This document shows positions 17,119 to 50,900 of a stretch of 64,000 bases of DNA, in pieces. The notes beneath the pieces are model-generated. The model saw only the letters and a program-made list of their open reading frames with translations. It ran no database searches and was not told the origin of the DNA. Location: contig JACKFZ010000002.1 in the NCBI GenBank assembly GCA_020632215.1, positions 8,701 through 72,700 on the forward strand, written 5' to 3'. Made by a program: the position numbers and the translations under genes. The DNA comes from Candidatus Nomurabacteria bacterium (GTDB lineage: Bacteria; Patescibacteriota; Minisyncoccia; Phycocordibacterales; JAACPR01). Positions within the stretch are counted from its first letter, which is position 1. Every line of letters starts with the position of its first letter.

Positions 17119-17130
17119 TAAATAAACCTC

Positions 17131-17166
17131 TTCTCTCCCCGCCGCGTCAAACGCGGCGGGGTTTTT
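17131..17166 (+). terminator. Rho-independent terminator
   Basis: ccccgccgcgtcaaacgcggcgggg followed by tttttatat. Confidence 0.75.
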
Positions 17167-17223
17167 ATATAAAAAAAGCCACGCCTCAGCGTAGCCACAA
17201 CCTCCTTTCTTTAGTTTGATTTG

Positions 17224-18485: not shown

Positions 18486-18505
18486 AATCGGACCCACCCT
18501 TTTAT

Positions 18506-19108: not shown

Positions 19109-19282
19109 AACAATTTTTTATTAAATAAATTAAGTGCAAAAACTATATCAGATAATAGTAAATAGTAAATAGTAAATAGTAAGTAGTGCTCAGTTTCCAG
19201 GTGTCAAAAAACCGAAGTAGTTGTCATTCCCGCGGAGGCGGGAATCCCGTACAAACTTAGGTATTATTATTGCCACTTTTTT

Positions 19283-19567
19283 CTAATCAAATTGTATGAC
19301 AAAAAATCCTTTGTCTGCTAACTCTGGTTGCTGTTCTTTCCATTGCTTCCAATCAATCTTAGCAACATACCTTACTTGCTTTTCAATAAACCTTCCAGAT
19401 GGTTTTCTATCTTTTCCTTCTCCAACCCATTCTTCTAAACGTAAAATGTCCCCATCTTCAATCACGAAATCAGCCAACCGAAGCTCGAACTTCTTTTTGC
19501 CAGACAATATCATATCGAACCATTCTGTATCGATTTTTTTAGTAATAGTTTTCATAATGTGTATCAA
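19283..19567 (-). CDS. DUF3850/ASCH-like (PUA-fold) small protein
   Basis: TEWFDMILSGKKKFELRLADFVIEDGDILRLEEW matches the DUF3850 pattern (ExF..v..G.KtFElR.nDRdf.vGD.L.L.E). Confidence 0.5.
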   Translation of the reverse strand: MIHIMKTITKKIDTEWFDMILSGKKKFELRLADFVIEDGDILRLEEWVGEGKDRKPSGRFIEKQVRYVAKIDWKQWKEQQPELADKGFFVIQFD

Positions 19568-20585: not shown

Positions 20586-20587
20586 TT

Positions 20588-20670
20588 GATTAGTTAGTAG
20601 TAAATAGTAAATAGTTAGTAGAAAATTTCAAGTTTGGACCTATTTACTATTTACTATTTTCTAATACTCA
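20588..20670. repeat. Inverted-repeat element of TAGTAAA/TAGTTAG heptamer arrays (family A) between map and secY
   Basis: tagtagtaaatagtaaatagttagtag then an 18-nt spacer then cctatttactatttactatttt. This forms a long AT-rich hairpin. Confidence 0.8.
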
Positions 20671-29300: not shown

Positions 29301-29376
29301 CATAAAAAATATACAAAGCTCCAATGGAGCTTGGTGGCTGTATATACTAACAGATATCGTTTTAAAGTCAACAAAT

Positions 29377-29495
29377 TAGTTAGTAGTAAATAGTAAATAG
29401 TTAGTAGACTTATTAGATTGATTCTTAGCCGTATATTTTACTCTTTCTTTCTCAATGAACCACTCCTATTTACTACTTACTATTAACTATTACCT
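29377..29495. repeat. Family A heptamer inverted-repeat element between rpsS and the M16 peptidase gene
   Basis: ttagttagtagtaaatagtaaatagttagtag ... ctatttactacttactattaactat. Confidence 0.8.
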
Positions 29496-29518
29496 AATAA
29501 TATGTATAATTTGGCCAT

Positions 29519-34081: not shown

Positions 34082-34162
34082 TTTTGTTTAGTATGTAGAA
34101 TGTAGTATTTAGAGTTTGTTTTCCTCTTCTATCTGTCTGCCGGCAGGCATACAACATTCTGG

Positions 34163-34582
34163 TTAAACCATCTTCACATCTATGTTGACACCGGACGGAA
34201 GACTTAGGTTTGTTAGTGCCTCGATGACTTTAGCATCAGGATTAATAATGTCAATTAACCTTTTATGTATTCGCATTTCAAACTGCTCTCGTGCATCTTC
34301 ATAGATGAAAGTTGAACGGTTAACTGTATACTTCTTTATTTCTGTAGGAAGCGGGATAGGACCACTAATCTTTGCATCAAATCTCAAAGCTGTGTCAATA
34401 ATTTGTTTCACTGATGAATCCAGGATCTTGTGCTCATAAGCTCTGATCCTTATTCTCAACTTAGAAACAATTTCTGAGTCAGTTTTTGGTTTTGATTTTG
34501 CGGCAGTTTTCGAAACAGCTTTAGTAGTCTTTGTTGCCAACTCCTTTTTTGTATTACTTTTTGTTGCTTTTGTTTCAGCCAT
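34163..34582 (-). CDS. rpsJ: 30S ribosomal protein S10 with about 40-aa K/T-rich N-terminal extension
   Basis: ...KLRIRIRAYEHKILDSSVKQIIDTALRFDAKISGPIPLPTEIKKYTVNRS... Confidence 0.9.
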   Translation of the reverse strand: MAETKATKSNTKKELATKTTKAVSKTAAKSKPKTDSEIVSKLRIRIRAYEHKILDSSVKQIIDTALRFDAKISGPIPLPTEIKKYTVNRSTFIYEDAREQFEMRIHKRLIDIINPDAKVIEALTNLSLPSGVNIDVKMV

Positions 34583-34587
34583 ATTTT

Positions 34588-34668
34588 TTAGTATATAGAA
34601 TGTAGTATTTAGTATGTAGTATGATTTTACTCTTCTACATTCTAAATTCTACATACTACATTCTTTCC
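34588..34668. repeat. Inverted-repeat element of TAGTATG/TAGAATG/TAGTATT heptamers (family B) between rpsJ and tuf
   Basis: tagtatatagaatgtagtatttagtatgtagtatg ... ctacattctaaattctacatactacattc. Confidence 0.8.
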
Positions 34669-34671
34669 TGG

Positions 34672-35871
34672 TTAAGCTACGATTTTTGTAACAACTCCAG
34701 CACCAACAGTTTTACCTCCTTCTCGAATAGCAAATCTTTGCTTTTCTTCTAGAGCAACAGGAGCTGTAAGCTTTACTTTGAAAGTAACAGTATCCCCAGG
34801 CATAACCATTTCTGTTCCTTCTGTTAAAGTAACTTCTCCAGTAACATCAGTTGTTCTGATATAGAACTGAGGCTTGTAACCTGAGAAGAATGGTGTATGT
34901 CTTCCTCCTTCTTCTTTCTTTAGAATATATACTTCTGATTCAAATTCTGTATGTGGTGTAACAGAACCTGGAGCAGACAGAACTTGTCCTCGGTGAATGT
35001 CTTCTTTCTTAACACCCCGAAGAAGGATACCAGCGTTATCTCCTGCCATACCTTCATCAAGTTGCTTATTGAACATTTCAATACCTGTAACTGTGTACTT
35101 TGTTGTATCTTTGATACCAACAATTTCAACATCTGTACCAACTTTGATTGTTCCTCTTTCAATTCTTCCTGTTACAACAGTTCCTCTACCTTCAATTGAG
35201 AAGATATCTTCAACTGGCATAAGGAAAGGTTTGTCAGTTTCTCTTTCTGGCAATGGGAAGTAGCTATCCATATTGTCGATAAGTTCTAGAACTTTCTTAA
35301 CCCATTCATCATCAGCAGATGAAGCTTCCAGAGCTTTTAGAGCTGAACCTTTGATAATCGGAGCGTTAGCACCATCAAATCCATTAGCAGTTAAAAGTTC
35401 TCTGATTTCTTCTTCAACTAGATCAACCATTTCTGCATCATCTACCATATCAACTTTGTTGATGAAAACCATAATCTTTGGAACACCGACTTGTCGTGCC
35501 AACAGAACGTGCTCTCTTGTTTGAGGCATCATACCATCTGTAGCAGCAACTACGAGAACAGCACCATCCATCTGAGCAGCACCAGTAATCATGTTCTTGA
35601 TGTAGTCAGCGTGACCAGGAGCATCAATGTGAGCGTAGTGTCTATTAGGTGTAAAGTATTCATTGTGAGAAAGAGCAATAGTAATACCTCTTGCCTTTTC
35701 TTCTGGAGCGTTGTCGATTTGGTCGACAGCCTTCTCATTTGCACCATATTCTCCACCTTTTAGGTTTAGAGAGTGCAAAATAGCCGCAGTAAGAGTAGTC
35801 TTACCGTGGTCAACGTGTCCAATTGTACCAACGTTTACGTGTGGTTTTGAACGATCAAATGCTTCTGCCAT
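34672..35871 (-). CDS. tuf: Elongation factor Tu
   Basis: [14 protein letters not shown]..., the [26 protein letters not shown] region, and a length of 399 aa. Confidence 0.95.
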
Positions 35872-35911
35872 AATTTTTTAATTAAAAGTTAATAATTAAT
35901 AATTTAAAGTT

Positions 35912-36040
35912 AAAATCCGAAATTCGAATCTCGAAATACGAAACAAATTTTAATTTCTAAATCCTAAATTAAAAACATTTATTTAGAATTTAAGGTTTAG
36001 ATATTGTTTCGGATTTCGGATTTCGTGCTTCGAATTTCAA
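35912..36040. promoter_or_regulatory. Inverted pair of the recurrent motif TTTCGGATTTCGTGCTTCGAATTTC (family D) upstream of tuf
   Basis: aaaatccgaaattcgaatctcgaaatacgaaacaaa at 35912..35950, and gtttcggatttcggatttcgtgcttcgaatttc at 36005..36040. The same motif occurs at 19661..19700, 31385..31420, 60158..60185 (reverse) and 60216..60250. Confidence 0.6.
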
Positions 36041-36158
36041 GTCTGCATACAGACTTGCTAATTGTCTGAGAACACCGCACGAGAATTTGGCATTCTCAAA
36101 CAACTCGCTATTACCCTTTTTAATACAAAAAAAGACGCCTAAATCAGCATTCTGATTT
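36038..36158. promoter_or_regulatory. Three distinct short palindromes in the tuf upstream region
   Basis: CAAGTCTG-CATA-CAGACTTG at 36038..36057, GAGAAT-TTGGC-ATTCTC at 36081..36097, and AAATCAG-CAT-TCTGATTT at 36141..36158. On the minus strand the last one is followed by a T-run, so it may terminate the upstream rplL-side transcript. Confidence 0.45.
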
Positions 36159-36284
36159 TTGCCTCAAAAGTTTCGTAAATAGCGTGAGAGTTATGTTATC
36201 AGATAAAAAAGAGATGTCAATAAGCCCCTTATAACAACTGCTAATAAAGTTACATAAAAGAAAAAATAAAAAAATATGAAATTC

Positions 36285-36641
36285 TTACTTCCCTAAAAAA
36301 CTAGCAATAAAGTCAGCTACCATTTTTTGAATTTCCAATATCTTTTTCTCTAATTCATCAATAGAAACTTGTTGAGACGAGCTAGTAGCATTCACCAATG
36401 TGCCTGTTCTTTGCTCATCCTTTAATTGTTTTTTGGTCTTTAAAAACACATTCTTACTACTTCTACCTGAATTTTTTAAAGCTTTATTTACTTGTTTTTG
36501 TAATTGATTAACCAAATCTTGTAATTGATCTTCTGTGTATTCACTTGTATCTAGATCAAACGAAGATGCCTTGGCTTCTCCTATAAATAAACTAGTTGAT
36601 ATAAAAATGATTAGTAGTATTACTAAAATTCTTTTTGTCAT
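36285..36641 (-). CDS. Small secreted hypothetical protein
   Basis: 118 aa with a signal peptide, followed by a charged coiled-coil-like region. Confidence 0.4.
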   Translation of the reverse strand: MTKRILVILLIIFISTSLFIGEAKASSFDLDTSEYTEDQLQDLVNQLQKQVNKALKNSGRSSKNVFLKTKKQLKDEQRTGTLVNATSSSQQVSIDELEKKILEIQKMVADFIASFLGK

Positions 36642-36719
36642 GAGCCATATTATATTGAAAAAAAAACAAAACGAACAGAGGTTATCCGTTCGTTTTGTTA
36701 ATAATTTTAGAAAACTAGC

Positions 36720-37205
36720 TTATTTCAACTCTACAGTAGCACCAGCTTCTTCTAACTTCTTCTTCATTTCTTCTGCTTCTTCTTTCTTCACTCCTGCCTT
36801 TACATCTCCAGGAGCACCATCAACGATATCTTTAGCTTCCTTTAGTCCAAGACCAAGCACTTCCTTGATAACCTTGATGACAGCAATCTTTTGAGCCCCA
36901 GCATCCTTTAGATGAACTGTAAACTCACTTTGTTCATCACCAGCACCCGCATCACCACCTGCTGCAGGAGCGGCGGCAACAGCTACAGCTGAAACACCAA
37001 ATTTCTTTTCTAACAATTTCACAAGTTCGTTTAATTCAAGAACACTCATTGATTCTATTTGTTCAACAAGAGTCTTGAACTTTGCTGGAACTTCTACGTT
37101 TTCCCCGTTATCGTCAGATTTTACAGGATCAGCACCTTCGTCAGCTTTAACTTCTTCAGCAGGAGCTTCTGTATTTTCAGCAATTTTATTTTCTTCGTCT
37201 GTCAT
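36720..37205 (-). CDS. rplL: 50S ribosomal protein L7/L12 with about 40-aa acidic N-terminal extension
   Basis: ...[31 protein letters not shown]... then the C-terminal domain [27 protein letters not shown]...[10 protein letters not shown]. Confidence 0.9.
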
Positions 37206-37209
37206 AATA

Positions 37210-37298
37210 TTAGTTAGTAGTTAGTAGTAAATAGTAAGTAGTTTTAGTAAATAAAAAATTAGATTCTATTTACTATTTAGTATTTACTATTTACTGAT
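37210..37298. repeat. Family A heptamer inverted-repeat element between rplL and rplJ
   Basis: ttagttagtagttagtagtaaatagtaagtag ... ctatttactatttagtatttactatttact. Confidence 0.8.
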
Positions 37299-37300
37299 TA

Positions 37301-37789
37301 TTAAGCTTCTTTTGTATCTGCATAGGCTTTTACAACCATAGCAAAACCTTGAATTGGTGAGTTGATAACATTCACAAACATACCGAGCAATGTTTCTCTA
37401 GAAGGAATCTGAGCAATTTCTTCAATCCCATTCTTATCTAGAAACTTTCCTTCAAAAACTCCTCCCAACATCTGGATGTTGTCTGAAAATTGTTTCTGGA
37501 ATTTGAAAATCTCTCTCGCTGGAGCTATTAAGTCATCAGCATAAACCAAGGCCAACTCTCCATCCAAACTCGGAAGCTCTCCTTCAATAGAAGAGTCTTC
37601 AAAAGCTTTTCGGATTAGAGTTTTTCTTGCAACAAAATATGATACATCTGCTTTTCGAAGTTCATTCCTCATCGCAGCTGTCTCAGATACAGGCAAACCA
37701 TGAAAATTCACAAAGACTATGGAATCTTTTTTGGTTACATCCCTTAACTTGTCCAAGATTTCTTTTTTCTTATCTTTTGTAACTGCCAT
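37301..37789 (-). CDS. rplJ: 50S ribosomal protein L10
   Basis: MAVTKDKKKEILDKLRDVTKKDSIVFVNFHGLPVSETAAMRNELRK... Confidence 0.9.
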   Translation of the reverse strand: MAVTKDKKKEILDKLRDVTKKDSIVFVNFHGLPVSETAAMRNELRKADVSYFVARKTLIRKAFEDSSIEGELPSLDGELALVYADDLIAPAREIFKFQKQFSDNIQMLGGVFEGKFLDKNGIEEIAQIPSRETLLGMFVNVINSPIQGFAMVVKAYADTKEA

Positions 37790-37794
37790 TTGAT

Positions 37795-37885
37795 TTGATT
37801 AGTAAATAGTAAGTAGTAAATAGTAAGTAGCTTTAGTAAATAAAATTAGATTCTATTTACTATGTTAGTATTTACTATTTACTAG
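37795..37885. repeat. Family A heptamer inverted-repeat element upstream of rplJ
   Basis: tgattagtaaatagtaagtagtaaatagtaagtag ... ctatttactatgttagtatttactatttactag. Confidence 0.8.
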
Positions 37886-37963
37886 TTTTCCGACCAGATA
37901 AGGCCGGAAATGAGAAAGCGTACCTATATTACGCAAAACCTCGAGAGGTCTTAAATAGTATGT

Positions 37964-38030
37964 AGAATGTAGTATTTAGTATGTAGAGTTGGTTATCCTT
38001 TCTCTGCATTCTAAATCTACCTACCACATC
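37964..38030. repeat. Family B heptamer inverted-repeat element upstream of rplJ
   Basis: tagtatgtagaatgtagtatttagtatgtagag ... gcattctaaatctacctaccacatc. Confidence 0.7.
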
Positions 38031-38096
38031 CTCATCGCCTCTTGTCTTTGGCCTTATGGATGTATAGATTACCGTTTTTTACAAAAAAGTCAACAT

Positions 38097-39281
38097 CTAC
38101 TCTTCTATTGAAAAATCAACTATTTCTTTGAAGCCACCAGGAAAAGTTACCTCCATTTCATAAGTCCCTTCTGACACATCATCAACAAGAGTAAAGTAAG
38201 CATTGTATGACTTAGCCTGACCAGCATATATCACATCATCTAAATTAAAATAATCATTACAAATTCCCACATCTTCCAAACCATCAACGTCCAGTTTAAT
38301 GGCTTCACAAGAATCTAGATTATCAACAATACTACTAGAAGTGTTGTTTGCAATTGTTCCAGAAACAATTATTGTTTCTCCTGGCTTAAAAATTTCTTTG
38401 TTCAAAGTAACCTTAGTTGTCACACTTTCTTCTAAAACAGTATCTGCATCATTACTGATTTTAAAGTCAATATAAGCTTTGTTATTTCCTGGGAAAATAA
38501 CTGTTAGTTTATACTTTCCTTCTGCTATTCGTTCTGGTTGTTCTGGAACAAGTTCTACCTTATAAGTGGCTGATTCTCCATTTCTTAGAGTAATAACAGT
38601 TTCGTAAGTATAGCAAGGAAAAGGACCTTGAATGTAACCATAGTACGGTTTGTTAATATCGACAGTCATCCCCGTACAATTGGATACTGGACCTTCTATA
38701 TCTACCCCGGAATTATTTGTAATTTTACCTGTTATTAATATTCTTTCATTAGCTTCGTACTCATCTTTATTAGTATCTAAATACAAACTAATGCCTCCAT
38801 TGTTACTAGTTGATGAATTATAAAATGAACTGCTTGAGTTAGAGCCACAAGAAGTATTTATGAATGATAAAGTTCTGGGACCGACTACTCCAAAACCAGT
38901 TGTATTAGCGTCACCAGAAGAGACAATACCTCGTGATGCTTGGAATCTTTTAACGGAGTCGACAGTTACGCTTCCATAATATCCAGTAATTTCAGGGTAG
39001 GTAAAAAAACCTCTATCTCTGAGATATCTTTGCAAAGCGGAGACTTGGCCAGCAGTAGAAAAATCATTGTCACCAATATACATAGTTCTGTTGAAGATTG
39101 CACAAGACTGCCCCGAACCACTTGAGTTTGAAGTGGTGCTACCAGTTTCTAATTGACCCAATTGTTGCCTGATTCTCAATAAAGCTTGTTCAATAGTTTC
39201 CAAACTTTGAGCTTGGGCTACAGAAAAACCAGTAATGAGTAAGAAGGTTAATAATATTGATGCTAGTACTTTTTTTCTCAT
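38097..39281 (-). CDS. Secreted protein with peptidoglycan-binding (PG_binding_1-like) domain and two Ig-like repeats
   Basis: Signal peptide. GQVSALQRYLRDRGFFTYPEITGYYGSVTVDSVKRFQASRGI resembles the PG-binding three-helix domain. Two related C-terminal beta domains. Confidence 0.55.
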   Translation of the reverse strand: MRKKVLASILLTFLLITGFSVAQAQSLETIEQALLRIRQQLGQLETGSTTSNSSGSGQSCAIFNRTMYIGDNDFSTAGQVSALQRYLRDRGFFTYPEITGYYGSVTVDSVKRFQASRGIVSSGDANTTGFGVVGPRTLSFINTSCGSNSSSSFYNSSTSNNGGISLYLDTNKDEYEANERILITGKITNNSGVDIEGPVSNCTGMTVDINKPYYGYIQGPFPCYTYETVITLRNGESATYKVELVPEQPERIAEGKYKLTVIFPGNNKAYIDFKISNDADTVLEESVTTKVTLNKEIFKPGETIIVSGTIANNTSSSIVDNLDSCEAIKLDVDGLEDVGICNDYFNLDDVIYAGQAKSYNAYFTLVDDVSEGTYEMEVTFPGGFKEIVDFSIEE

Positions 39282-40090
39282 TGATTATTTTCTATATAAG
39301 ATTGATCTGATATTGTGCTAAGTTTTCTAACAAACATTATTATACCTAAACTAAAGAGAAAACCTGCAATTGAAAACAAAACATCCGAAATATCACCTTG
39401 CCAGTAAACTTCCGCTGTCTCTCGAAAAGCAAAAACTAGGTCAGCAGCAACCATAACGATCAGACCTAGATTATAGATAAAAAGACCAGAAAAAATCTTT
39501 CCCCCAGCCACAGTCAAGATAATAATAGACATGACTATCAGTATAAGGTCTGAGACAGAGTAGAAGAAATTAAAAAATGTCTCATTCAAACCTACTCCAT
39601 CTTCTCCACCCCACATTGGCACACCAACTAATTGGATAACAATATAGCCAACAATTAATAAAAACACAATAGCAGTAATAATTTTTCTGGCGTTAATACT
39701 ACTTTTGAAAATTTTGAAAAAATAGAAAAAAGCAATGATGTTAAAAATAGTATAAAGCAACCATAAATAGTCAGCGAAAGAAGGAAAAGGTAAATCATTA
39801 TCTAAGAAGATTGCATAGTATGCCCAAACTAAAAAACCAAATCCTAAAAATAAAGTAGAGATACTGGCAAACAACAAGCCTTTCGATTGAGCATTACTGA
39901 TACTCATCCTCTTGATTCCACGAAAGCCAAAAAATGATCCGTAGAGCATCACTAGAGCCATGACAGGCACGACCCATCTGTTAAAAGCCGTCTCATACCC
40001 ACTGTAAGTGATATTTAAAAATAGATGATATCCAAGTAGTAAGACAAAAATGATAACTAGATGAGTAGTAGCCTTTTTATAATTCATCAT
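39278..40090 (-). CDS. Polytopic membrane protein, hypothetical
   Basis: 270 aa with about 8 TM helices. It overlaps the downstream secreted-protein gene by 4 nt. Confidence 0.45.
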   Translation of the reverse strand: MMNYKKATTHLVIIFVLLLGYHLFLNITYSGYETAFNRWVVPVMALVMLYGSFFGFRGIKRMSISNAQSKGLLFASISTLFLGFGFLVWAYYAIFLDNDLPFPSFADYLWLLYTIFNIIAFFYFFKIFKSSINARKIITAIVFLLIVGYIVIQLVGVPMWGGEDGVGLNETFFNFFYSVSDLILIVMSIIILTVAGGKIFSGLFIYNLGLIVMVAADLVFAFRETAEVYWQGDISDVLFSIAGFLFSLGIIMFVRKLSTISDQSYIENNQ

Positions 40091-40183
40091 TATAGTAATT
40101 CTAAAAAGTATTTAGATTGAAAACAACCTAGTTATGCAATGAAAAAACCCTACACAACATGGTGTAGGGTTGAAAAAGAGACT

Positions 40184-42331
40184 TTATCCTCTTTGAGCTT
40201 TAATAGTCTGAGCTACATTTGGTGGTACCACTTCGTAGTGATCAAATTCCATGGTTGCAGATCCACGACCTTCTGTCATAGATCGAAGTCTAGTCGTATA
40301 TCCAAACATTTCTGACAGTGGCACAAGAGCATGTACTGCTTGAACACCTGGCCCTCTATCTTCCATACCTTGGACTTGTCCTCTCTTTGAAGATAAGTCT
40401 CCGGTAATATCTCCAGTAAATTTATCTGGAACAACCACTTCAACCTTCATCACTGGTTCTAGTAGTACAGGCTGTGCTTTTTCTGCTGCTTCTTTGAAAG
40501 CAAATGTAGCAGCTAGTTTGAAAGCAATTTCACTTGAGTCCACTTCATGATATGAACCATCGAATAGTTCTGTTGAAACATCAACCATTCTATAACCAGC
40601 AACAATTCCTCTTTCCATTGCTTCCTTAACCCCTTTCTCAACAGCAGGAATAAATTCATTTGGAACAACACCTCCTTTAATATTGTTAATAAATTCCATT
40701 CCTTCACTCCTTTTAACATTCTTAGCAATTTTCTCGTCAGGATCTGTGCTCTTTTCTAGTGGTTTAATTCGAATCTTAACGTGACCATATTGTCCCTTAC
40801 CTCCTGATTGTTTGATATATTTATGTTCAGCTTCAGCTGGAATTTGAATTGTTTCTCGATAAGCGACTTGTGGTTGTCCAACATTAGCTTCAACATTAAA
40901 TTCTCTTTTCATACGATCAACAAGGACTTCTAGGTGTAATTCTCCCATACCCGAAATAATAGTTTCTAGTGTTTCATCATCAGTTGTAACCTTAAAAGTA
41001 GGATCTTCATCAGCAAGTTTTCTAAGAGCCATTCCCATTTTTTCTTGATCTGCTTTTGTCTTTGGTTCAATTCGTAGCGAAACAACTGGCTCTGCAAATT
41101 CAATCTTGTGAAGTTCAATAGCATGAGCTTCATCACAAAGAGTGTCAGAAGTATGAGTATCTTTCAGACCAACAGCTGCAGCAATTTCTCCAGCATAAAC
41201 TGTTTTTACTTCTTCTCTTTCATTGGCATGCATTCGTAGTATTCGTCCCAATCTCTCTTTGTTACCTGTTGATGCATTATAAACATATGAACCTGCTTCA
41301 ATTTTTCCAGAATAAACTCTGAAGTATGTAAGCTGTCCAACATAAGGATCAGTCTGAAGTTTAAAAGCAAGAGCAGAAAAAGGTTCTTCGTCTGAAGCTT
41401 TTCTGTCTATTTCTTCACTAGTTTTTGGATCAACACCAGTTATTGGTGGGATATCTATAGGAGATGGTAGATAGTCGACAACGGCGTCTAGTACTAATTG
41501 AACACCCACATTTTTCAAAGCAGAACCTGTAAATACAGGCACAACATCACCAGAAATAACAGCTTTTCTCAAAGTCTTTTTCAAATCTTCTAAAGCAATT
41601 TCCTTTCCTTCCAGAAAATCATTCATTTGAGCTTCATCATTTTCAACAATTTTTTCAATAAGCTCGCTTCTATATTTTTCTGCATCAGCCTTTAGTTCTT
41701 CTGGAATATCAATTTCAATAACGTCATTGCCCATATTCCCCTCAAACTTGTACCCTTTCATCCTTAGCAAATCTACTACTCCTTCATGATTACCTTCTTC
41801 CCCAATAGGTATCTGAGCCCTAACCGCATTCTTTGTTAGCCGATCCAAAATAGATTTGTATGATCTTTCAAAACTTGCTCCTGTTCGATCTAGTTTGTTA
41901 ATAAAACAAATTCTTGGAACTTTATATTTATCAGCTTGTCTCCAAACTGTTTCTGATTGTGGTTCAACACCAGCAACACCGTCAAAAACAACCACTCCTC
42001 CGTCTAGAACCTTGAGAGATCTTTCTACTTCTGCAGTAAAGTCAACGTGACCAGGTGTATCGATAATATTAAAACGATGTTTAAAATCTTGGTTGCCTTT
42101 CTCGTAAGTAGGAATCCAAAAAGCAGTTGTAGCAGCTGAAGTGATAGTAATACCTCTTTCTCTTTCTTGTTCCATCCAGTCCATAGTTGCCTCTCCCTCA
42201 TGAACCTCTCCAATTTTATGAGAAACACCAGTGTAGAACAAAACACGCTCTGTTGTTGTTGTTTTACCAGCATCAATATGTGCAATAATTCCAATATTGC
42301 GAACTTTTTCTAATGGATAATCTCTCGACAT
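40184..42331 (-). CDS. fusA: Elongation factor G
   Basis: [20 protein letters not shown]..., 715 aa. Confidence 0.95.
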
Positions 42332-42342
42332 AACTTCTGTAA

Positions 42343-42432
42343 ATTAATAGTTAATAATTAATAGTTAATAATTAATAGTTAATAATTAATAGTTAATAGT
42401 TAATACTTATCAATTATTAATTAAATAATAAA
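42343..42432. repeat. Tandem AT-rich 14-mer (agttaataattaat) array, a family A variant, upstream of fusA
   Basis: aattaatagttaataattaatagttaataattaatagttaataattaatagttaatagttaatac. Confidence 0.75.
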
Positions 42433-42485
42433 GCCCCAGGAGCACTGAAGTCCGTCCATCATAACAGAAAAGTGGGATTAGTAAA

Positions 42486-42575
42486 GTTAGACATCAGACA
42501 TCAGATGTTGGAAGATTCATTGATAACTTATGTCTGGTGTCTGAAATCTGACGTCTAGTCTTCAGTTTTTAGTGG
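42486..42575. repeat. Inverted-repeat element of GACATCA/GTCTGAA heptamers (family C) between fusA and the NTF2-like gene
   Basis: gttagacatcagacatcagatg ... tgtctggtgtctgaaatctgacgtctagtcttcag. Confidence 0.7.
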
Positions 42576-42616
42576 CTAGTGATCAGTGATTAATTTAAAC
42601 AATACTTATAATAGGA

Positions 42617-42979
42617 TTAGTAATTAGTAGTTCTCTCTATTATCTGATTATTCTCGTCAAACGTAAACTCATCTGTAAATTCAAAATTGACTTCTTCTCC
42701 ATCATCAGTACCAATAAAAGAACCTTTGACTAAAACAGAATTATTATCTGGATTATATATCAAACTACTTACTGTATGATTGCCAGAAAGTTTTCTATCG
42801 TTCATATAGAAACCCACAAGTTGTTCTCTACCCTCTAAGACCAAATTATTCCGTCTATATCTGATACTTTCAGAAAAAAGATTCCCCATACCATCCCAGT
42901 CACTACGATCTACTAACCGATAATAATCATTTGCAAGTCCAATAAGTACGCTTTCATTTTCAGGAGATTCAAAACTCAT
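42617..42979 (-). CDS. NTF2/SnoaL-like small protein, hypothetical
   Basis: 120 aa. The N-terminal half resembles the NTF2-like fold in a general way (DYYRLVDRSDWDGMGNLFSESIRY). The assignment is weak. Confidence 0.3.
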   Translation of the reverse strand: MSFESPENESVLIGLANDYYRLVDRSDWDGMGNLFSESIRYRRNNLVLEGREQLVGFYMNDRKLSGNHTVSSLIYNPDNNSVLVKGSFIGTDDGEEVNFEFTDEFTFDENNQIIERTTNY

Positions 42980-43069
42980 AAAATGTATACTATAAAAAAT
43001 ATGCTCAAATTACAATAATAAGAATGTTAAATCGCCTTTCACTAGTCACTAAAAACTGAAAACTAGAAA

Positions 43070-43519
43070 TTAATCTTCAAACTTCTTCCTTTCACTAATC
43101 AAAGCATAAAATATATATAGTGTAATGATTATTGGAATTAAACCAACTATTGCTACTCGGCTTGCAGATATATCACCATTTTGTATTTGAGGCAGACTAT
43201 TTATCATGTTTAGAAACTCAGGGGCAGCAAAAGCACTTTTTGCCAATGAAGCCAGTGAGTCCAGAAGAGCTAGGTAGTAGCCCCATTTAGTCATAGTTAC
43301 CAAACCGAATACTATAAATACATAGACTAAGATAAGTAGTGAGTCATGCATTACTATCTCTCCTATTCCTTGCCCTTCTCCTAAAACAGAGAATAGATTA
43401 AGTGATAAACCAATAATAGATAAAATAAATAGAGCGACTACGATTTTTATTCTCAAAGGAATTTTATTATTCTTATTTTTCATACCTAAAATTTTACAGA
43501 TTAAAAAGAATTCAGACAA
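43070..43519 (-). CDS. Small membrane protein, hypothetical
   Basis: 149 aa with 4 hydrophobic helices. Confidence 0.35.
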   Translation of the reverse strand: MSEFFLICKILGMKNKNNKIPLRIKIVVALFILSIIGLSLNLFSVLGEGQGIGEIVMHDSLLILVYVFIVFGLVTMTKWGYYLALLDSLASLAKSAFAAPEFLNMINSLPQIQNGDISASRVAIVGLIPIIITLYIFYALISERKKFED

Positions 43520-43524
43520 TAGGA

Positions 43525-43650
43525 GTTGTCAGATGTCAGAAAAAATTATAAAAAAATAGTAACTGTTGTCTAATGTCTGAAGTCTAGTGTCTGAAGTCTG
43601 AAGTCTGAAGTCTAGTGTCTGAAGTCTGAAGTCTAGTGTCTGATAACTGA
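43525..43650. repeat. Family C: tandem GTCTGAA/GTCTAGT heptamer array (about 11 units) with an upstream inverted copy
   Basis: ttgtcagatgtcag ... gtctgaagtctagtgtctgaagtctgaagtctgaagtctagtgtctgaagtctgaagtctagtgtctgat. Confidence 0.85.
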
Positions 43651-43654
43651 CTAA

Positions 43655-43840
43655 TTAAAGTCCTAAAATTCTCCTCTTTGCTTCCCTAACAACATTTTCA
43701 TCAAATGGTATCGCCATCAAAGCCATCTTTTCAATATGATCTTGTGTGGCCATTTCTTTACAAATCATTATGAGGCCTTCCACTTCTCTCTCATCAACAA
43801 TTCTTTGCTCTTCTACAATCAGAGAATCGTTTCTAAACAT
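43655..43840 (-). CDS. Small hypothetical ORF
   Basis: 61 aa. No features. Confidence 0.2.
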   Translation of the reverse strand: MFRNDSLIVEEQRIVDEREVEGLIMICKEMATQDHIEKMALMAIPFDENVVREAKRRILGL

Positions 43841-43906
43841 TTTTATATAATAACAAAAACCAGCACCCTATAGGTGCCAGTTTTTCACAAATAATAAAAT
43901 TGGAGA

Positions 43907-44377
43907 CTACCAAGCGAAGTGTGCAAATGCTTTATTTGCTTCTGCCATCTTGTGGGTATTTTCTCTCTTCTTAACTGCTTCACCTTCATTTTGACTAGCA
44001 GCAATAATTTCATCAGCTAGTTTGTAAACCATAGACTTTCCCTTTTTCGTATTTGCAGCAGCCTTGATCCAAGTCATAGCCAAGAAAAGTCTCCTCTCTG
44101 GTCTAACTTCCCGTGGGACTTGATAGTTAGCACCCCCAACTCGTCTTGATCTCACTTCCATTTGAGGAGCTGCATTTCTGAGAGCTTGATCAAAAACTTC
44201 TAAAGGATTTTCTACCTTTGCTTTTTTCTTTATTTCTTCAAAAGCGCCGTAGACAACTTTTCTAGCTGTCTCTTTCTTCCCCCCTTCCATAACGTGGTTA
44301 ATAAACTTCTCAACTTTTACTGAGTTGTACCTTATATCTGGCTTTACAATATTTCTATTTTTAACTGGTCTTCGCAT
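43907..44377 (-). CDS. rpsG: 30S ribosomal protein S7
   Basis: MRRPVKNRNIVKPDIRYNSVKVEKFINHVMEGGKK... Confidence 0.9.
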   Translation of the reverse strand: MRRPVKNRNIVKPDIRYNSVKVEKFINHVMEGGKKETARKVVYGAFEEIKKKAKVENPLEVFDQALRNAAPQMEVRSRRVGGANYQVPREVRPERRLFLAMTWIKAAANTKKGKSMVYKLADEIIAASQNEGEAVKKRENTHKMAEANKAFAHFAW

Positions 44378-44415
44378 GATTTTAGTTAATAGTTAGTAGG
44401 TGGTAGTTAATAGTG

Positions 44416-44829
44416 TTAATTTGATTTTGGTTTCTTAGCTCCATATCGACTTCTTCCCTTAGCTCGTTTTTGAACTCCTTCAGCATCCAAAACACCTCGA
44501 ACAACTGTATATCGAATGTTAACATCCTTTACTCTACCTCCTCGAAGCAATACTACTGAGTGTTCTTGTAGATTATGACCCATACCAGGAATATATGCTG
44601 TTACTTCCATACCATTTGTTAATCTAACCCTAGCAATTTTTCTAATAGCTGAGTTTGGTTTTCTAGGTGTCTTTGTTGTCACTTTTGTACATACACCTCT
44701 TTTAAAAGGAGAGTTATAGTAAGTAGGTCTATTTTTCAAAGTATTGAAACCACGTTGAAGAGCAACAGCCTTTGATTTCTTGGCTGTCCTTGTTCTGTTT
44801 TTTCTTACTAATTGATTGATTGTTGGCAT
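44416..44829 (-). CDS. rpsL: 30S ribosomal protein S12
   Basis: [25 protein letters not shown]...[17 protein letters not shown]. Confidence 0.95.
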
Positions 44830-44831
44830 GT

Positions 44832-44920
44832 GTATTTAGTATGTAGAATTTAGAATGCAGTATGTAATGTAATATGTAGAGTTATTTTATATACTACATT
44901 CTAAATTCTACCTTCTAACT
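44832..44920. repeat. Family B heptamer inverted-repeat element between the giant gene and rpsL
   Basis: tgtatttagtatgtagaatttagaatgcagtatgtaatgtaatatgtagag ... tatactacattctaaattctaccttct. Confidence 0.75.
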
Positions 44921-44984
44921 AAAAAGACCTCTTTCGAGTAGCTGATACTCTAATATATATGTATATTTTTTGCAAGTGCCTCAA

Positions 44985-47900
44985 TTACTGAGCGGTGCTT
45001 AGATTGTCACTATTTTGACTTGTTTGCTCAGTATTAGAATCTACTGGCTCTGTTACCGTAGGTTCAATAACCTCCTCAACAGGTGTTGTTTCATCTACAA
45101 CTGGCTCTGGTTCAGATGCTGGAGCTGGGTCTGTTACTTGCTCTTCTATAACAGGATTTTCCTCAACAGGTGTTGTTTCATCTACAACTGGCTCTGGTTC
45201 AGATACTGGAGCCGGGTCACTGGAAGAATCACCACTATCATCGATCAAAGTGTTTTGCAAAGTAGAACTAGTAACATCTTCAGGTGCAGTTCCACACTCT
45301 CCATTCCTTGTCACAGTCATTCCGTTCTTAATACTTAGACAATATGGTTCACCTGTTTCTTCATCATACAAAGTGATACCTGTAGGTTTTTCTGGAGAAC
45401 CAACAGTTAGTTTTTGGAAGACACTAACAACTGATGAGTAGCTATTGTTAGCAATATCTTGTACTTGTTCTGATAATGCTTGAATCTTAGTATTTAATTC
45501 TTTAATTGCAGAAATAATATATGGAATAAATCCACCATAAGATACTGATTTCAAATGCTCTCCATCAGGTGATGTTTTTACTAATTCTGGGAAAATACTT
45601 TCTACTTCTTGTGCAATTAGACCAATTCTCTTTTCGTTGTTTTCATCTGTCTTCCATTCAAATTCTACCGGTTTCAAATCTACAAATTTTGCCAAGATAT
45701 CTTGAGAGGAAAGTTCTGTGATTTCCTCTTTCAATCTTTGGTCTGATGTACAAATCCATGAAGCATCGCTTGGGTCTATTTCACAGTACGCATTTGCATC
45801 TTGGAATCTAACAGGTGAACCACTTGTTGCATGGAATACATGCAATGGTCGTACAGGTGAAGTGGTACCAACTCCAATATAGCCAGAATCACTTATAAAT
45901 ATGGATGTGTTTGACCCAGAATTTATTCCAAAACTTCCACTTGAAGTAATACCGTCTAAATCAAATGTGATTGTGTTTGTGGCATTTCCAAGAATGATAT
46001 TCCCATCTACCGCCAAATCATCGCCGACCGCTAGATTTCCAGCAAAGCTTGAGGTGTTTGTGGCATTTATTACTAATGCACCTCCAAATACTGATGTTGT
46101 TGAACCAACTCGTAAAGAGTCGACCACTGCACGGCCAGTTACATCTAGAGAATTTGCAAATGAAACATTTCCATTCTCATCCAACACAATTGAAGGAGTA
46201 GATGTTGGGGCGCTCAACAAATTGATTCTTTGACCAATTTCTTGAATAGCGTTTACTGTAACAGCTGCAATGTTTCCGTAAGAAATTCCCTTCTTTCCGT
46301 CTTCTCCATGAACAAGTTCTGGCAAGACACCTTCCAATTCTTGCGCCACGAATCCGATTGTCTCTATATATATGTCTTCTCCGAGTTCGTTTTGACCAGC
46401 TTTTATCTTATATCGTCGAGGTATTAAGTCCATAATCTCTGTTAGACCATAGTTCAAATTGACAATATCGCTTTTAATAGAAACATCAGAAGCGTTGGTC
46501 CATTCTCCTGCAGCATTCAAGGTTGCTGTGTTTCCTGCTCCACCTTCAAAGTTTAGAACTTGAGAAGTATTCATATAAATTGCGCGGTAATCTCCATCTG
46601 AGGCCTCTAGGTAAATTCCGCCAGACGCATCATTTGAAGACTGAGTAATGGCCAAAGCACTACTTGGTGATGATGTACCAATTCCAACACCCCCTGACAA
46701 ATAGTAAATATCGCTTCCTGATTGAGCCCAGAAGCTTCCGCTAGAGTCTCCCCCAATAGCAAAGTAAAATTCATCACCTTTTCCAGATGAGTTTGAACTT
46801 GCACTACTTGAGTTGATTCTTAAATTAAACCCATATGCTGTTTGGGATTCATCATCAAGTGGCGCAAAGACACGATCGCTGGCAACTGACCAACTTGTTT
46901 GGACTGATCCTAAAATAGCGTAGTTTGCAGAATCCATTGGGTCTTCAAAGTTAATCCAGTATCGACCTGTGGCAATTTCGGCGACACTATTTACATTTGA
47001 GCTACCAAATATAGCAGTTCTTTCCAAAGTCACATTTCCAGAAGTTGTTCCTGAAGTACCATGAGTAACTGTGAAGGTATTTGCATCTGCAACACTTGTA
47101 ACTGTGAATAATCCATCGGCAGCTGCACCAGTAGTGAAGTTCAAGTAAACTTTATGGCCCACAATATGTCCGTGTGCAGTTGCAGTGACAGTCACAGTAG
47201 TACCTGATCTTGAATATGTACCAGAAAGATCATCATCGGTCGGTCCATTAACATAAGCCCAAGTACTTGTCGCAGAATTTAAGGCGGAAATATCGGCTTC
47301 AAGCGCAACAATTTTGTCATAGATTGCATTTTTGGAAGCGGCACCAGTGTCGCTATCCCAACCCACACCAAAGGCGGTATCGGAAGGAACAATTGGAATC
47401 CAAGACCCTCCGCTGTCTTTGGCTTCAACGACTCCAGAGTTGTCTCGGACTCCATATCCGGTTGATCCAAAAGTGCTTCCAAAGTTTAGATAAGAAGGTC
47501 CAAGTTGTGCATAAGATGCACCATCAGTAAAAGATAAGTTTGTTGAAAGCAAGTCAAACTGATTACTTCCGCTATTAAGCGCGATGCTGTTGTAATTTAA
47601 ATCCAGACCATTACCACTATTCACCGTCTGAACAACAGAAATATCATCATAAACCGTCAAAGTTTTTCCTGTCTGCAGAGTGCTTGCGTTCAAACCAATT
47701 CCAACTTGATTTGCACTGGCATCAACAAACAGACCATGACTAGCGCCAGTTGCCTCCCATCTGAAATCTTCCGTAGTTCCACCAGATTCGTTTCCAACAA
47801 GACCAACTGATGTAGAGAAAGTTAACCCAGCATCGTCTGTTAATGTGTCGGCATCACTTGCAAAAGGAACTCTTCCTGCAGTCAAAGTTCCATCGATACC

Positions 47901-50900
47901 ACCAGAGCTTGCCGCCCACTGAACACCCGTTCCGGTTGACTGAAGAACATAACCACTTGTTCCAAGAGAGGCATTGTTATCGTAAAGTCCTCCAGTCAAA
48001 GCGAAGTCTCCATCAACAGAAAGTGTGGCATACGGAGTCGATGTTCCAACTCCGACTTTTGCTGTTTCAGAACCATTATCTCCTTTAACAACAAAAACTT
48101 CATTATTTAAGACTGATGCTGTAGAGTTATAAATGACAAAATTTACACCGTTAGTATTTATATCAGAGCCTACAGTTAATACATCGGTGATTTGACCTGC
48201 ACCATCATTATTACCAACAACAAAAGCTCTAGTTTGATTGTCTGATTCAACGGCTAAATCACCTGAAGGTGTAGTTGTACCAATTCCAGTAAATCCTGAA
48301 TACCCGCTAATAGTAAACACTGGATAATTTGTTGGTCCCTCCGCTCTTATTGCAGCCTGAAAGATAGGGTTTGTTTGATTGTCAGTACCGACAACAGAGA
48401 ATCTAGCATAAGGACTTGTTGTTCCGACACCTACATGCCCTGCATTATCAGCAAGAAAGATCGTGTCATACTCTGGATCAGCAGAAAATGGTATAGATAA
48501 TAAGAACAGATCATTGGCCTCTGTACCTTCAACTGCCAACGTAGTAGAAACAGTACTTGTTCCAATTCCAAAATAATTATTTGTTGCATCCCAATAAAAA
48601 TCGCCCTTATCTTGAGCCAGATTTCCTGACCCATCAATAAACAAAACCGCACCAGGATCTCCTGAACCAATAGAATCTCCAATTGAGATTGACCCGGATG
48701 ACGCACCCCAAGTTGGAAGTCCACCAGATACAGATAGAACTTGTCCACTTGTTCCAATAGGAAGTTTAGCCAATGAATTTGAACCATCAGCATAAAGAAT
48801 ATCTCCGGCTGTATAAGTTGTAATTCCTGTACCACCATAAACCTCTCCTATAGCACTTCCATTCCATGTACCACTAGTAATAGTTCCTACGGTTGCAAGT
48901 GAAGAAGCACTTGTGAGATTAGCTAAGGTATCAATAGCAGATTCAATAGTAGATTCTGTTGTGGCGTCTAAACTATCAATATTCAGAATTGACGTATTCC
49001 CACCACTATCATAAATAATAGCTGAACTATTGACACTTAGGTAACCATTTGCATCAAGGTTAATTGAATAAACACCATCAATAGAATCTAGATCAGATAT
49101 TGTGATTCCAGAATTTTTAATAATTTTCCCAGTTGTCCCATTAAATCTCACTATTGCATTATTGGTTGCACTAGCTGGGCCACTAACATCTCCACTACCA
49201 CTAGCAACATCTTGCCAAGTTGGTGCTGTCCCTGTTCCATTTGAGGTTAATGTTTGACCACTTGTTCCAAAGAGACCATTCAGTGTTAGATAATTTGTTG
49301 TATTGAAGTTTGTTGTTGTTGCATTAGTAAAGACTCCTGTTGAAGCTGATGAAATACCTATTGGTGTATTATTAATTGTTCCACCTGATATAGTTAGATC
49401 ATTTGCAACATATGTATCAGCAACTGCTGTACCTTGCCATACACCAGTTCCAATAGTTCCAACCGTTGAAAGATTAGCCAAAGTTGTAATGTTTGGAAGT
49501 GTTGTTGTAGCACTTAGTCTGTTATCGAATCTTGTGTTGGTGAAGTAGAGATTGGTTGAACCTTCACTTAAAGCATCAGTGTCTGTTGCATTGAAGAAGT
49601 TGTAGAAAGGAATACCGAAGCTTGTGAGATTTGTGGCATCTAAGTAGTAACTTCCCTCTTGTCCATCGAATGTTCCTGTCCAGTTGCCTGTGGCGTCTAG
49701 AGTAATAGCTTCACCTACACAGTTAATACCTGTTCCTTCAACATCAGAACAATCAAATGATAATGTGTCATCTGTTAAATCAACACCTGTGCTGACTGCT
49801 AGGTTAGTGTTAGCACTAATGTCGATAGTGTCATTGTTAGTAAAGACATTAGTAACACCTGTTAGGAATGATTCAAGTGAGCTTTCGGTATTGTTGTTCC
49901 AGATTGTAGTTGAAGCATTGATGTAATCTGCAACGTCTGTGTCTGTGTAATGAGTTAGATCTGAGATTTGGCTTTCTGTGATTGAAAGATTAGCCAAAGT
50001 TGTAATGTTTGGAAGTGTTGTTGTAGCACTTAGTCTGTTATCGAATCTTGTGTTGGTGAAGTAGAGATTAGTTGAACCTTCACTTAAAGCATCAGTGTCT
50101 GTTGCATTGAAGAAGTTGTAGAAAGGAATACCGAAGCTTGTGAGATTTGTGGCATCTAAGTAGTAACTTCCCTCTTGTCCATCGAATGTTCCTGTCCAGT
50201 TGCCTGTGGCGTCTAGAGTAATAGCTTCACCTACACAGTTAATACCTGTTCCTTCAACATCAGAACAATCAAATGATAATGTGTCATCTGTTAAATCAAC
50301 ACCTGTGCTGACTGCTAGGTTAGTGTTAGCACTAATGTCGATAGTGTCATTGTTAGTAAAGACATTAGTAACACCTGTTAGGAATGATTCAAGTGAGCTT
50401 TCGGTATTGTTGTTCCAGATTGTAGTTGAAGCATTGATGTAATCTGCAACGTCTGTGTCTGTGTAATGAGTTAGATCTGAGATTTGGCTTTCTGTGATTG
50501 AAAGATTAGCCAAAGTTGTAATGTTTGGAAGTGTTGTTGTAGCACTTAGTCTGTTATCGAATCTTGTGTTGGTGAAGTAGAGATTAGTTGAACCTTCACT
50601 TAAAGCATCAGTGTCTGTTGCATTGAAGAAGTTGTAGAAAGGAATACCGAAGCTTGTGAGATTTGTGGCATCTAAGTAGTAACTTCCCTCTTGTCCATCG
50701 AATGTTCCTGTCCAGTTGCCTGTGGCGTCTAGAGTAATAGCTTCACCTACACAGTTAATACCTGTTCCTTCAACATCAGAACAATCAAATGATAATGTGT
50801 CATCTGTTAAATCAACACCTGTGCTGACTGCTAGGTTAGTGTTAGCACTAATGTCGATAGTGTCATTGTTAGTAAAGACATTAGTAACACCTGTTAGGAA

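Follow-up and report, generated by a model that had tools for sequence, protein, structure and literature searches.

Start-codon-proximal heptamer arrays in a Candidatus Nomurabacteria bacterium: a candidate substitute for the Shine–Dalgarno sequence

Introduction

Direct repeats of the heptamer TAACTGA have been described in marine Beggiatoaceae, in cyanobacteria and in some Bacteroidetes (MacGregor 2015, PMC4679880). They are of untested function, with S1, Csp and CsrA as proposed binding proteins (PMC4679880). The subject here is a set of tandem, typically inverted arrays of another heptamer, termed family B, found beside ribosomal protein genes in a 64-kb stretch of a Candidatus Nomurabacteria contig (the window, from whose first letter all positions are counted) and compared with 80 related Paceibacteria loci (numbered with the prefix L). 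Family B and its companions in the window, families A and C to E, resemble the TAACTGA repeats in several respects. In both cases a unit of 7 nucleotides (nt), there in two to six or more tandem copies, stands in forward orientation a few nucleotides upstream of start codons; no Shine–Dalgarno (SD) sequence is recognisable there, and no canonical one lies between array and start here. Both occur inside ribosomal protein operons (there at fusA and at the genes for L3, S4 and S1), the forward strand contains stop codons, and the window's A and C units TTAACTA and CTAACTA share the string TAACT with the described repeat. The B unit, however, is YATWCTA in mRNA sense, and several unit families coexist in this one genome. 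Around half of the elements here are inverted hairpin pairs, compared with 1 of 170 sets in the orange Guaymas Beggiatoa (BOGUAY). The host belongs to the Paceibacteria of the Candidate Phyla Radiation (CPR), and the distance to the ATG has its mode at 5–7 nt rather than at 1 nt.

Heptanucleotide repeats of the short tandemly repeated repetitive (STRR) type were reportedly described from cyanobacteria by Mazel in 1990. Heptamer repeats are also found in Nostoc, where some lie near or overlap start codons (bioRxiv 10.1101/2022.06.06.494920). With these and with the wider class of long simple sequence repeats (LSSR), the window arrays share the tandem heptanucleotide unit, the intergenic position, the presence of several families per genome and a suspected regulatory role; as in that class, which has units of 5–11 nt, the copies run head to tail beyond chance expectation, and their non-multiple-of-3 units lie almost wholly in non-coding DNA. 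Their units are nevertheless unrelated to those of STRR, for which strict start-proximal polarity is not described and which are not palindromic cassettes of about 85 nt with conserved ends.

CA-rich or AU-rich leaders act as SD-independent translational enhancers. Like the window arrays they are G-poor, unstructured sequences just before the start codon, and they raise initiation without SD pairing. The T7 gene 10 epsilon sequence, UUAACUUUAA, cited in PMC9590205, is an enhancer of this SD-independent kind. The epsilon core is present in the TTAACTT units (four to six copies) of L076, in AACTTTA of L066 and in window family C (TTAACTA), but epsilon is a single copy acting together with an SD, no tandem heptamers of it are known, and the B units lack its core.

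Two further systems offer partial parallels. In Bacillus subtilis, HutP binds a (UAG-N4)3 site on the hut terminator RNA (PMC2425495), and one arm of family B has the identical register, with at least three repeats on the 5′ side of a hairpin. Unlike the HutP site, it is accompanied by no terminator; no HutP gene was seen among the scanned window open reading frames (ORFs), the partner arm is an exact complement array, and the start-proximal arm reads CUA-N4. Repetitive extragenic palindromes (REP), bacterial interspersed mosaic elements (BIME) and miniature inverted-repeat transposable elements (MITE) are likewise short imperfect intergenic palindromes in operons, whose interior varies between conserved inverted ends. 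Such ends, 12 nt long, are present in all four family B copies, which lie within 11 kb of each other. The elements here, however, are anchored to start codons and not to gene 3′ ends, consist of tandem heptamers and possess an extra unit on the gene side; their left flanks show no relation to one another and no sign of a target-site duplication. A literature search for such arrays in CPR or Patescibacteria returned no report. Heptamer repeats upstream of start codons are known; the B and A units, the coexistence of several families, the frequent hairpin form with conserved ends and the CPR host set the present elements apart from the TAACTGA case.

Family B elements

In the window, heptamers of the form TAGWATK (forward strand) form tandem arrays at four loci only, the same four at which the earlier note had placed arrays of TAGTATG, TAGAATG and TAGTATT. 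The pattern TAGWATKTAGWATKTAG, with at most one mismatch, has 15 matches, all of them inside these loci, where shuffled sequences lead to an expectation of 0.03. Irrespective of family, (TAG-N4)3 matches 39 times in the window against 0.45 expected.

One element fills the spacer between rpsJ and rplC (34082..34162, minus strand). Its array, TAGTATG TAGAATG TAGTATT TAGAGTT, occupies 34089-34116, and the palindrome tgccggca, which had been pointed out beside it, is present at 34139-34146. In mRNA sense the element reads TAA(stop)CC, the left arm AGAATGTTGTATG and a 45-nt interior containing the mini-hairpin tgcctgccggcag; these are followed by the right arm AATACTACATTCT, by ACATACTAAA, by CAAAA and by the ATG of rplC. 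A second element fills the spacer between tuf and rpsJ (34583..34671, minus strand; array 34589-34664). Its distal arm, in mRNA sense, is AGAATG TAGTATG TAGAATT TAGAATG TAGAAGAG; the loop TAAAAT and the proximal arm CATACTA CATACTA AATACTA CATTCT follow, and then an unpaired tail, ATATACTAAAAAAT, leads into the ATG of rpsJ. Upstream of rpsL (44830..44925, minus strand; array 44833-44921), the order of units is mirrored in the two 40-nt arms, and the unpaired tail ATACTAAATACAC precedes the ATG at 44829. The remaining element (37950..38035, minus strand) lies away from any start codon. Its array spans 37956-38030, so that the start of 37964 proposed earlier was 8 nt too far to the right. The stop of a PG_binding-domain gene (38097) lies some 60 nt upstream of it. 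The family A element preceding rplJ lies 68 nt downstream of it, beyond two small GC hairpins (37918-37934 and about 37890-37912).

At rplC, rpsJ and rpsL the parts succeed one another in the same order in the mRNA: a distal UAGWAUK arm, a loop, a proximal YAUWCUA arm, an extra unpaired AYAUACUAAA, an A-rich spacer of 3–5 nt and the AUG. This order does not hold for the 37956 copy, after which the GC hairpins, the family A element and rplJ follow. The sequence upstream of rpsJ is identical in five metagenome contigs encoding the same S10 protein; since both the protein and the spacers are identical, these contigs carry no information on copy-number dynamics.

Polarity and distance to the start codon

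Family B is part of a more general pattern. The window, 84.5% of which is coding, contains 17 arrays of period 7, 16 of them intergenic, and at most one array for each of the periods 4–6 and 8–13. A strong period-7 signal was obtained in 11 of the 35 spacers of at least 28 nt, and an equally strong signal of another period in none. The key regularity is one of position and polarity: every array adjoining a start codon has its G-free CTA strand in mRNA sense. Tandem Repeats Finder (TRF) reports 11 window arrays near starts, all of which are G-poor in sense (4 G against 54 C; C exceeds G in 10 and G exceeds C in 0, p=0.002), and by eye the CTA strand was the sense strand in nine of nine single arrays. 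When the window and the 80 loci are taken together, C exceeds G on the sense strand in 41 arrays and G exceeds C in 15 (p=7e-4).

Period 7 accounts for 85 of the 130 non-coding tandem arrays in this combined set. An ORF start lies within 10 nt of the array end in 47 of the 130, with a mode at 6–7 nt, and the B arrays at rplC, rpsJ and rpsL stop 6–7 nt short of the ATG. Arrays gather 5–8 nt from start codons, and not beside stop codons.

Analogous arrays with other units are present in 22 of the 80 related loci. Their periods are 7, 8 or 9 nt (AACCTAA, CCTATAA, TTCCTAA, TTAACTT and CGAAGCTAA), they reach to 0–6 nt from the ATG, and most of them are unlike −10 boxes. In L074 (UBA2135; 13924-19487) arrays of the 9-nt CGAAGCTAA, with up to 9.7 copies, reach the ATG or end 2–6 nt short of it in at least five ribosomal protein operon genes, and 7-nt TTCCTAA arrays occur as well. 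The repeats of L023 are located downstream of a consensus promoter, i.e. in the 5′ untranslated region. B-type units stand 18 nt before fusA in L092, which belongs to a different genus (rpsL 66% identical). In relatives without the element, the tuf–rpsJ spacer measures 22–32 nt. Metagenomes were also scanned with a 20-nt B pattern. Among the matches listed, many contigs of varied GC content, some of them high-GC, have CATACTA/CATTCTA arrays, often inverted, before housekeeping genes such as nusB, ychF, fusA, yebC and an HIT-family gene. In these same matches the arrays most often end 5–6 nt before the ATG (9 of 20), and there is a 2:1 sense preference, which is indicative only, true arrays being mixed with chance matches of two to three units.

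Metagenome assemblies of this organism (L001–L005) break at or near heptamer cassettes, contigs L002 and L003 beginning 150 nt upstream of rpsJ; such repeats may therefore fragment assemblies of these genomes.

Expression signals and operon context

Only 4% of the window ORFs have an SD-like motif before them, and such motifs are rare throughout the relatives; GGAG, GAGG and AGGA were looked for upstream of the array-bearing genes and none was found. A signature of leaderless mRNAs, TAnnnT placed 6–9 nt before the ATG, is present in 25 of 60 ORFs, about three times background (about 2.3 times in relatives). Upstream of rpsS (29344-29372, minus strand) stands TTGACT-N16-(ATC)TGyTAGTAT, a conserved promoter motif of the lineage that recurs near rpsJ in several relatives (L023, L042, L067, L076 and L082).

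According to family searches, the order on the minus strand is a 4785-amino-acid (aa) ORF, rpsL, rpsG, three small ORFs, fusA, two ORFs, rplJ, rplL, one ORF, tuf, rpsJ, rplC, rplD, rplW, rplB, an HIT gene, an M16 peptidase gene on the opposite strand, and rpsS. Canonical intrinsic terminators were found only after rpsG (43885-43855), fusA and rplL. The terminator scan called no A or B element, the stems of which have neither a GC-rich helix nor a U-run. As the terminators are located elsewhere, the heptamer hairpins are not terminators, and rpsL–rpsG and rplJ–rplL are each co-transcribed; the 38-nt family A array between rpsL and rpsG therefore lies inside their transcript. Arrays are operon-internal in the rpsL–rpsG, rplJ–rplL, tuf–rpsJ and rpsJ–rplC spacers, and one is also present directly upstream of map.

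Folding of the elements

The inverted repeat of the rpsJ copy (34597-34623/34638-34664) has 27-nt arms that are 85% complementary, and that of the rpsL copy (44833-44872/44882-44921) has 40-nt arms that are 83% complementary. As RNA, the rpsJ element folds at −24.7 kcal/mol (z −5.4), the rpsL element at −32.9 kcal/mol (z −8.3, with 21 uninterrupted base pairs (bp)), the 37956 element at −25.1 kcal/mol (z −4.1) and the rplC element at −15.7 kcal/mol (z −3.3). All four fold well beyond shuffled controls, and the rpsJ, rpsL and 37956 copies form AU-rich hairpins. The description of family B as inverted arrays able to fold is upheld. Near-perfect hairpins of about 30 bp had also been claimed; hairpins there are, but the stems comprise only about 20–29 bp, and that of rpsJ is mismatched at about every seventh position. 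An inverted partner array is present in three or four of the four B copies and in about half of all elements, each arm being itself a direct array.

A closing helix of 12 bp, AGAATGTAGTAT/ATACTACATTCT, is common to all four B copies; it may also be written AGAAUGUAGUAU/AUACUACAUUCU, and it includes one compensatory change, from UA to AU, in the rpsL copy. Structure is in this respect conserved between copies. The rplC copy, which had been regarded as a half element, possesses the same helix; it is complete, though its interior differs. Between each hairpin and the AUG, 12–20 nt stay unpaired.

Relation to family A and other heptamer families

The concern that family B might consist of degenerate copies of family A is not borne out. 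Blocks of 28 nt compared in register are 86% identical within B and 82% within A, compared with 62% between B and A. Position 2 of the unit is A in 16 of 16 B units and T in 31 of 32 A units, whereas positions 5–7 are CTA in all 48 units and the 7-nt frame is common to both. The B units are CATACTA, CATTCTA and AATACTA; the A units are TTTACTA, CTTACTA, CTAACTA and TTAACTA. Because position 2 is diagnostic and the blocks differ as they do, B is a discrete subfamily and not a decayed copy of A, and the two are subfamilies of one superfamily that shares the frame and the CTA core. The earlier note had them side by side at both rplJ and rpsL and saw in this a modular, combinatorial use. They do adjoin at rplJ (A at 37800-37887, B at 37956-38030); at rpsL, family B lies upstream of the gene and family A in the rpsL–rpsG spacer, so that combinatorial use has one true side-by-side case and no second.

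Family A hairpin elements, all on the minus strand, lie directly upstream of rplJ (37790..37892; units TTTACTA/CTTACTA), fill the rplJ–rplL spacer (37206..37300; −20.8 kcal/mol, z −4.6) and stand directly upstream of map, the methionine aminopeptidase gene that starts at 20585 (20586..20660). The copies upstream of rplJ and rplL are about 90% identical, loop included. The 424-aa ORF upstream of the map element is probably secY, judging by gene order and size. A single, non-inverted A array makes up the whole 38-nt rpsL–rpsG spacer (44378..44415, minus strand; array 44383-44417). In the divergent spacer between rpsS (minus) and the M16 peptidase gene (plus), the arms of an inverted A pair (29374..29499) are each sense-oriented to their own gene and each lie upstream of a predicted −10 box (TGtTAGTAT for rpsS; TATAAT, with the TG directly abutting, for M16).

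Three further families were recognised: C (TTAACTA/TTAATTA), D (TTCG-type) and E (CAGACTT/TAGACTT). An array of about 12 family C units ends 10 nt before the fusA ATG (42341..42429, minus strand). Upstream of tuf, the family D heptamers at 35905-36045 form an inverted repeat with 63-nt arms that are 71% complementary (−41 kcal/mol for the sense RNA), and a TTAATTA-type array follows, ending 7 nt before the tuf ATG. Family E (43568-43650 and 42489-42560) comprises about 11 units, CAGACTT, TAGACTT and CAGACAC in mRNA sense, after which comes the best promoter match of the region, TAGACA-N16-TATAAT. A second, inverted pair of this kind, CAGACAT/ATGTCTG, is found upstream of fusA.

Other features of the region

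All of the closest relatives of the S10 protein (64–85% identity) are Patescibacteria of the Paceibacteria/Parcubacteria group. S10 itself (34163-34582) is extended at its N terminus by about 38 aa rich in Lys, Thr and Ala, which some relatives keep; the N-terminal extension of L7/L12 (36720-37205) is acidic and about 37 aa long. The gene order between 28974 and 44829 is unusual in that rplJ–rplL lie between fusA and tuf, and the str/S10 cluster is interrupted by SnoaL-like, membrane, PG_binding and HIT proteins as well as by the oppositely oriented M16 peptidase.

The giant 4785-aa ORF (44985-59342, minus strand) stands directly upstream of rpsL, at the expected place of rpoC. It has an N-terminal HTH_17 domain, a C-terminal Peptidase_S74 domain (endosialidase chaperone) and, at 49466-55379, a 516-bp (172-aa) unit repeated about 11.5 times in tandem with 99.98% identity. 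These repeats coincide with a local reversal of GC skew at 50–58 kb; RpoB or RpoC was considered for this HTH_17 and Peptidase_S74 repeat protein and ruled out. In the rpsS leader (29304-29340, minus strand) an attenuator-like hairpin, AAGCTCCATTGGAGCTT, and a T-run stand just before the real ATG (29303); the mechanically assigned TTG start at 29324 is wrong. A non-coding block of about 110 nt next to rpsJ is conserved in L065 (about 9860-9990), L067 (about 9865-9990) and L076 (downstream of rpsJ); it contains …ccaaatctggcgaa…cggatttcatccagattgtgaaa… and has the look of a structured RNA. At 7959-8333 (minus strand) lies the gene of a 23S rRNA intervening-sequence protein (PF05635), though the window has no rRNA or tRNA gene; no tRNA or tmRNA was found in it.

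Discussion

Across the window, position, polarity, periodicity, the lack of SD motifs, operon-internal location and an ability to fold that leaves the last unit free are directly observed. Family B could be a subfamily of lineage-wide, start-codon-proximal heptamer cassettes that serves as an SD-substitute leader in this SD-less Paceibacterium, a reading that is offered tentatively and put at somewhat less than an even chance. The functional core would be the G-free sense array (YAUWCUA)n, with its last unit AYAUACUAAA and an A-rich spacer of 3–5 nt directly 5′ of the AUG. In the mRNA, this array may take the place of the SD as an unstructured loading or enhancer site that offers no upstream start codon, and its reader could be either the ribosome itself or a helper with an oligonucleotide/oligosaccharide-binding (OB) fold, such as S1 or a Csp-type protein, with a footprint of about 7 nt. 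The inverted upstream copy, (UAGWAUK)n, would fold back on all units but the last. The resulting hairpin would compact the 80–90-nt spacer to a single-stranded path of about 25 nt, equal to the spacer length in relatives lacking the element, so that stop and start codons would stay close for re-initiation. The cassettes would have originated by slippage and would have spread between spacers by gene conversion.

A role at the level of RNA is favoured by the polarity, by the fixed short distance to the AUG and by the operon-internal positions, including the 38-nt spacer that is all array. It is also favoured by those arrays of relatives that cannot be −10 boxes, and by the repeats of L023 downstream of their promoter. 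The free tail before the AUG, the spacer length of relatives, the B-type units of L092 and the precedent of the TAACTGA repeats speak for the leader as well. Several observations weigh against the SD-substitute leader. The 37956 copy of family B adjoins no start codon, and in five cases (rpsS, ndk, M16 and gene 7905, and family E at 43519) a predicted −10 box stands just downstream of the array, which would not be transcribed from that promoter. Other such points concern the hairpin. The closing helix offers a single compensatory pair among four B copies, too few to prove an RNA structure; antisense RNA of family A folds better (−30/−35 kcal/mol) than sense RNA (−21/−22 kcal/mol); and G·U asymmetry was looked for in the hairpins, with no sense-strand bias found. 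That the hairpin is a selected sense-RNA structure is therefore only weakly suggested. Given that unpaired single arrays exist (rpsG, ampS) and that family A folds better in antisense, the hairpin may be secondary.

A rival reading is set at the level of DNA. The arrays would then be promoter modules, the last B unit forming the −10 box of a leaderless mRNA and the A and C units (TTTACT, TTAACT, TTGACT) supplying −35 or UP-like sequence. This is a serious proposal for family B in particular, although on balance a rather unlikely one. Family B occurs before rpsL, rplJ and rpsJ, which are the classical promoter positions of ribosomal protein operons, here those of str, L10 and S10. Its units are −10-like whichever strand is read (TAGTAT/TAGAAT or YATACT), the −10 consensus of the lineage is TGyTAGTAT, and TAnnnT precedes 25 of 60 ORFs. 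The last unit stands at leaderless distance, and the peak of array–ATG distances at 5–6 nt among the metagenome matches listed (9 of 20) would suit a −10 box of this kind. The fit to TAnnnT is nevertheless uneven. It is good for rpsJ (TATACT at +7 nt), but in rplC and rpsL (CATACT at +8 nt) the first T is missing, the 37956 copy has no ATG beside it, and the ATG-adjacent family A arrays (rpsG, rplL, map, rplJ and ampS) have no TAnnnT at this distance. Family B also lacks a TG or a −35 element at proper spacing; a −35 role for family B itself was rejected, no TTGACA-like hexamer having been seen by eye 16–18 nt upstream of the last unit. The arrays at rpsS, ndk, M16 and gene 7905 and family E do abut predicted −10 boxes on the −35 side, three of them with an extended TGn. 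Against this, the 38-nt rpsL–rpsG spacer is too short for a promoter, most arrays of relatives (AACCTAA, CGAAGCTAA) run right up to the ATG and are not −10-like, and the promoter scan of the region yields about as many sites as shuffled sequence (44 and 38). Hairpins between cistrons could alternatively be terminators or RNase III processing or stability structures. Long stems between genes (21 contiguous bp at rpsL, about 23–29 bp elsewhere) speak for this, but none is GC-rich, and an A-rich run replaces the 3′ U-tract. Canonical terminators are found elsewhere in the region, an inverted partner is missing from half of the arrays, and the anchor is the start codon and not the stop, which makes this the least credible of the proposals and a highly improbable one. 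When the 64 kb were searched with the covariance models of Rfam 15, no match reached the gathering score; at E<=5 there were only spurious, sub-threshold hairpins resembling miRNA precursors.

The arrays may also be neutral or selfish heptanucleotide repeats that originate by slippage, spread from spacer to spacer through recombination and are tolerated only in non-coding DNA, their palindromes folding away within operons. Heptamers are the most abundant LSSR class in the summary of Mrazek 2007 given in PMC4679880, and period 7 prevails among the non-coding arrays here (85 of 130). Units turn over between lineages, arrays stand at non-orthologous genes, and close relatives lack them in the same spacer; the identity of about 90% between the rplJ and rplL copies, which extends to the loop, points to recent copying, and the hairpins show little covariation and no sense-strand tuning. 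Such an origin does not account for the strong polarity towards the downstream gene (10:0 in the window, 41:15 over all loci), for clustering at 5–8 nt from start codons and not at stops, or for a CTA that is invariant in 48 of 48 units; the units are imperfect, and hence not fresh from slippage. The sequence is moreover identical in five independent samples and the B vocabulary recurs in another genus (L092), and a purely neutral origin is regarded as unlikely. It is less probable still that an oligomeric regulator of the HutP or TRAP kind binds the distal (UAG-N4)n, with n of 3–4, blocks the hairpin and so coordinates the ribosomal protein genes, although the B and A distal arms do read UAG-N4 in mRNA sense and (TAG-N4)3 is in large excess (39 against 0.45). 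The HutP motif UAGNNNNUAGNNNNUAG itself is found in the distal arms at 34635-34665, 44894-44917 and 20640-20663, the elements are concentrated at genes of the translation apparatus, and HutP binds UAGNNNNUAGNNNNUAG where it overlaps a hairpin that the protein destabilises (PMC2425495). In the mRNA, however, the start-adjacent single arrays read CUA instead of UAG; the part of the window ORFs that was scanned yielded no homologue of HutP or TRAP; and HutP sites flank a terminator, which follows none of these hairpins. A three-frame stop cassette (TAG/TAA every 7 nt) was dropped, as sense arrays of TTTACTA are stop-free and the 9-nt arrays of L074 stop one frame only.

Significance

How start codons are found without an SD is an open question in many bacteria, including the CPR/Patescibacteria, which form a large share of bacterial diversity. 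The cassettes are a compact, sequence-defined test case, with four near-identical copies before rpsL, rplJ, rpsJ and rplC, and the related families before rpsG, rplL, fusA, map and rplT widen the set. The rule of polarity and distance derived from the window can be checked genome-wide, and the cassettes make SD-independent initiation experimentally approachable. If they were instead promoter modules for leaderless mRNAs, they would define the main ribosomal protein promoters of an uncultivated lineage. A broader and decidedly speculative proposal, itself quite unlikely, is that Paceibacteria, and perhaps many SD-less bacteria, use a dedicated initiation signal composed of tandem CUA-core units of about 7 nt that end 5–7 nt short of the AUG, with an oligomeric or OB-fold RNA-binding factor or the ribosome itself as its reader, and coupled here to an inverted (UAG-N4)n switchable hairpin that would coordinate the str, L10 and S10 operons. 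Were this so, the start-adjacent CATACTA/CATTCTA arrays in the unrelated metagenome contigs listed, high-GC ones among them, would represent a widely shared recognition system.

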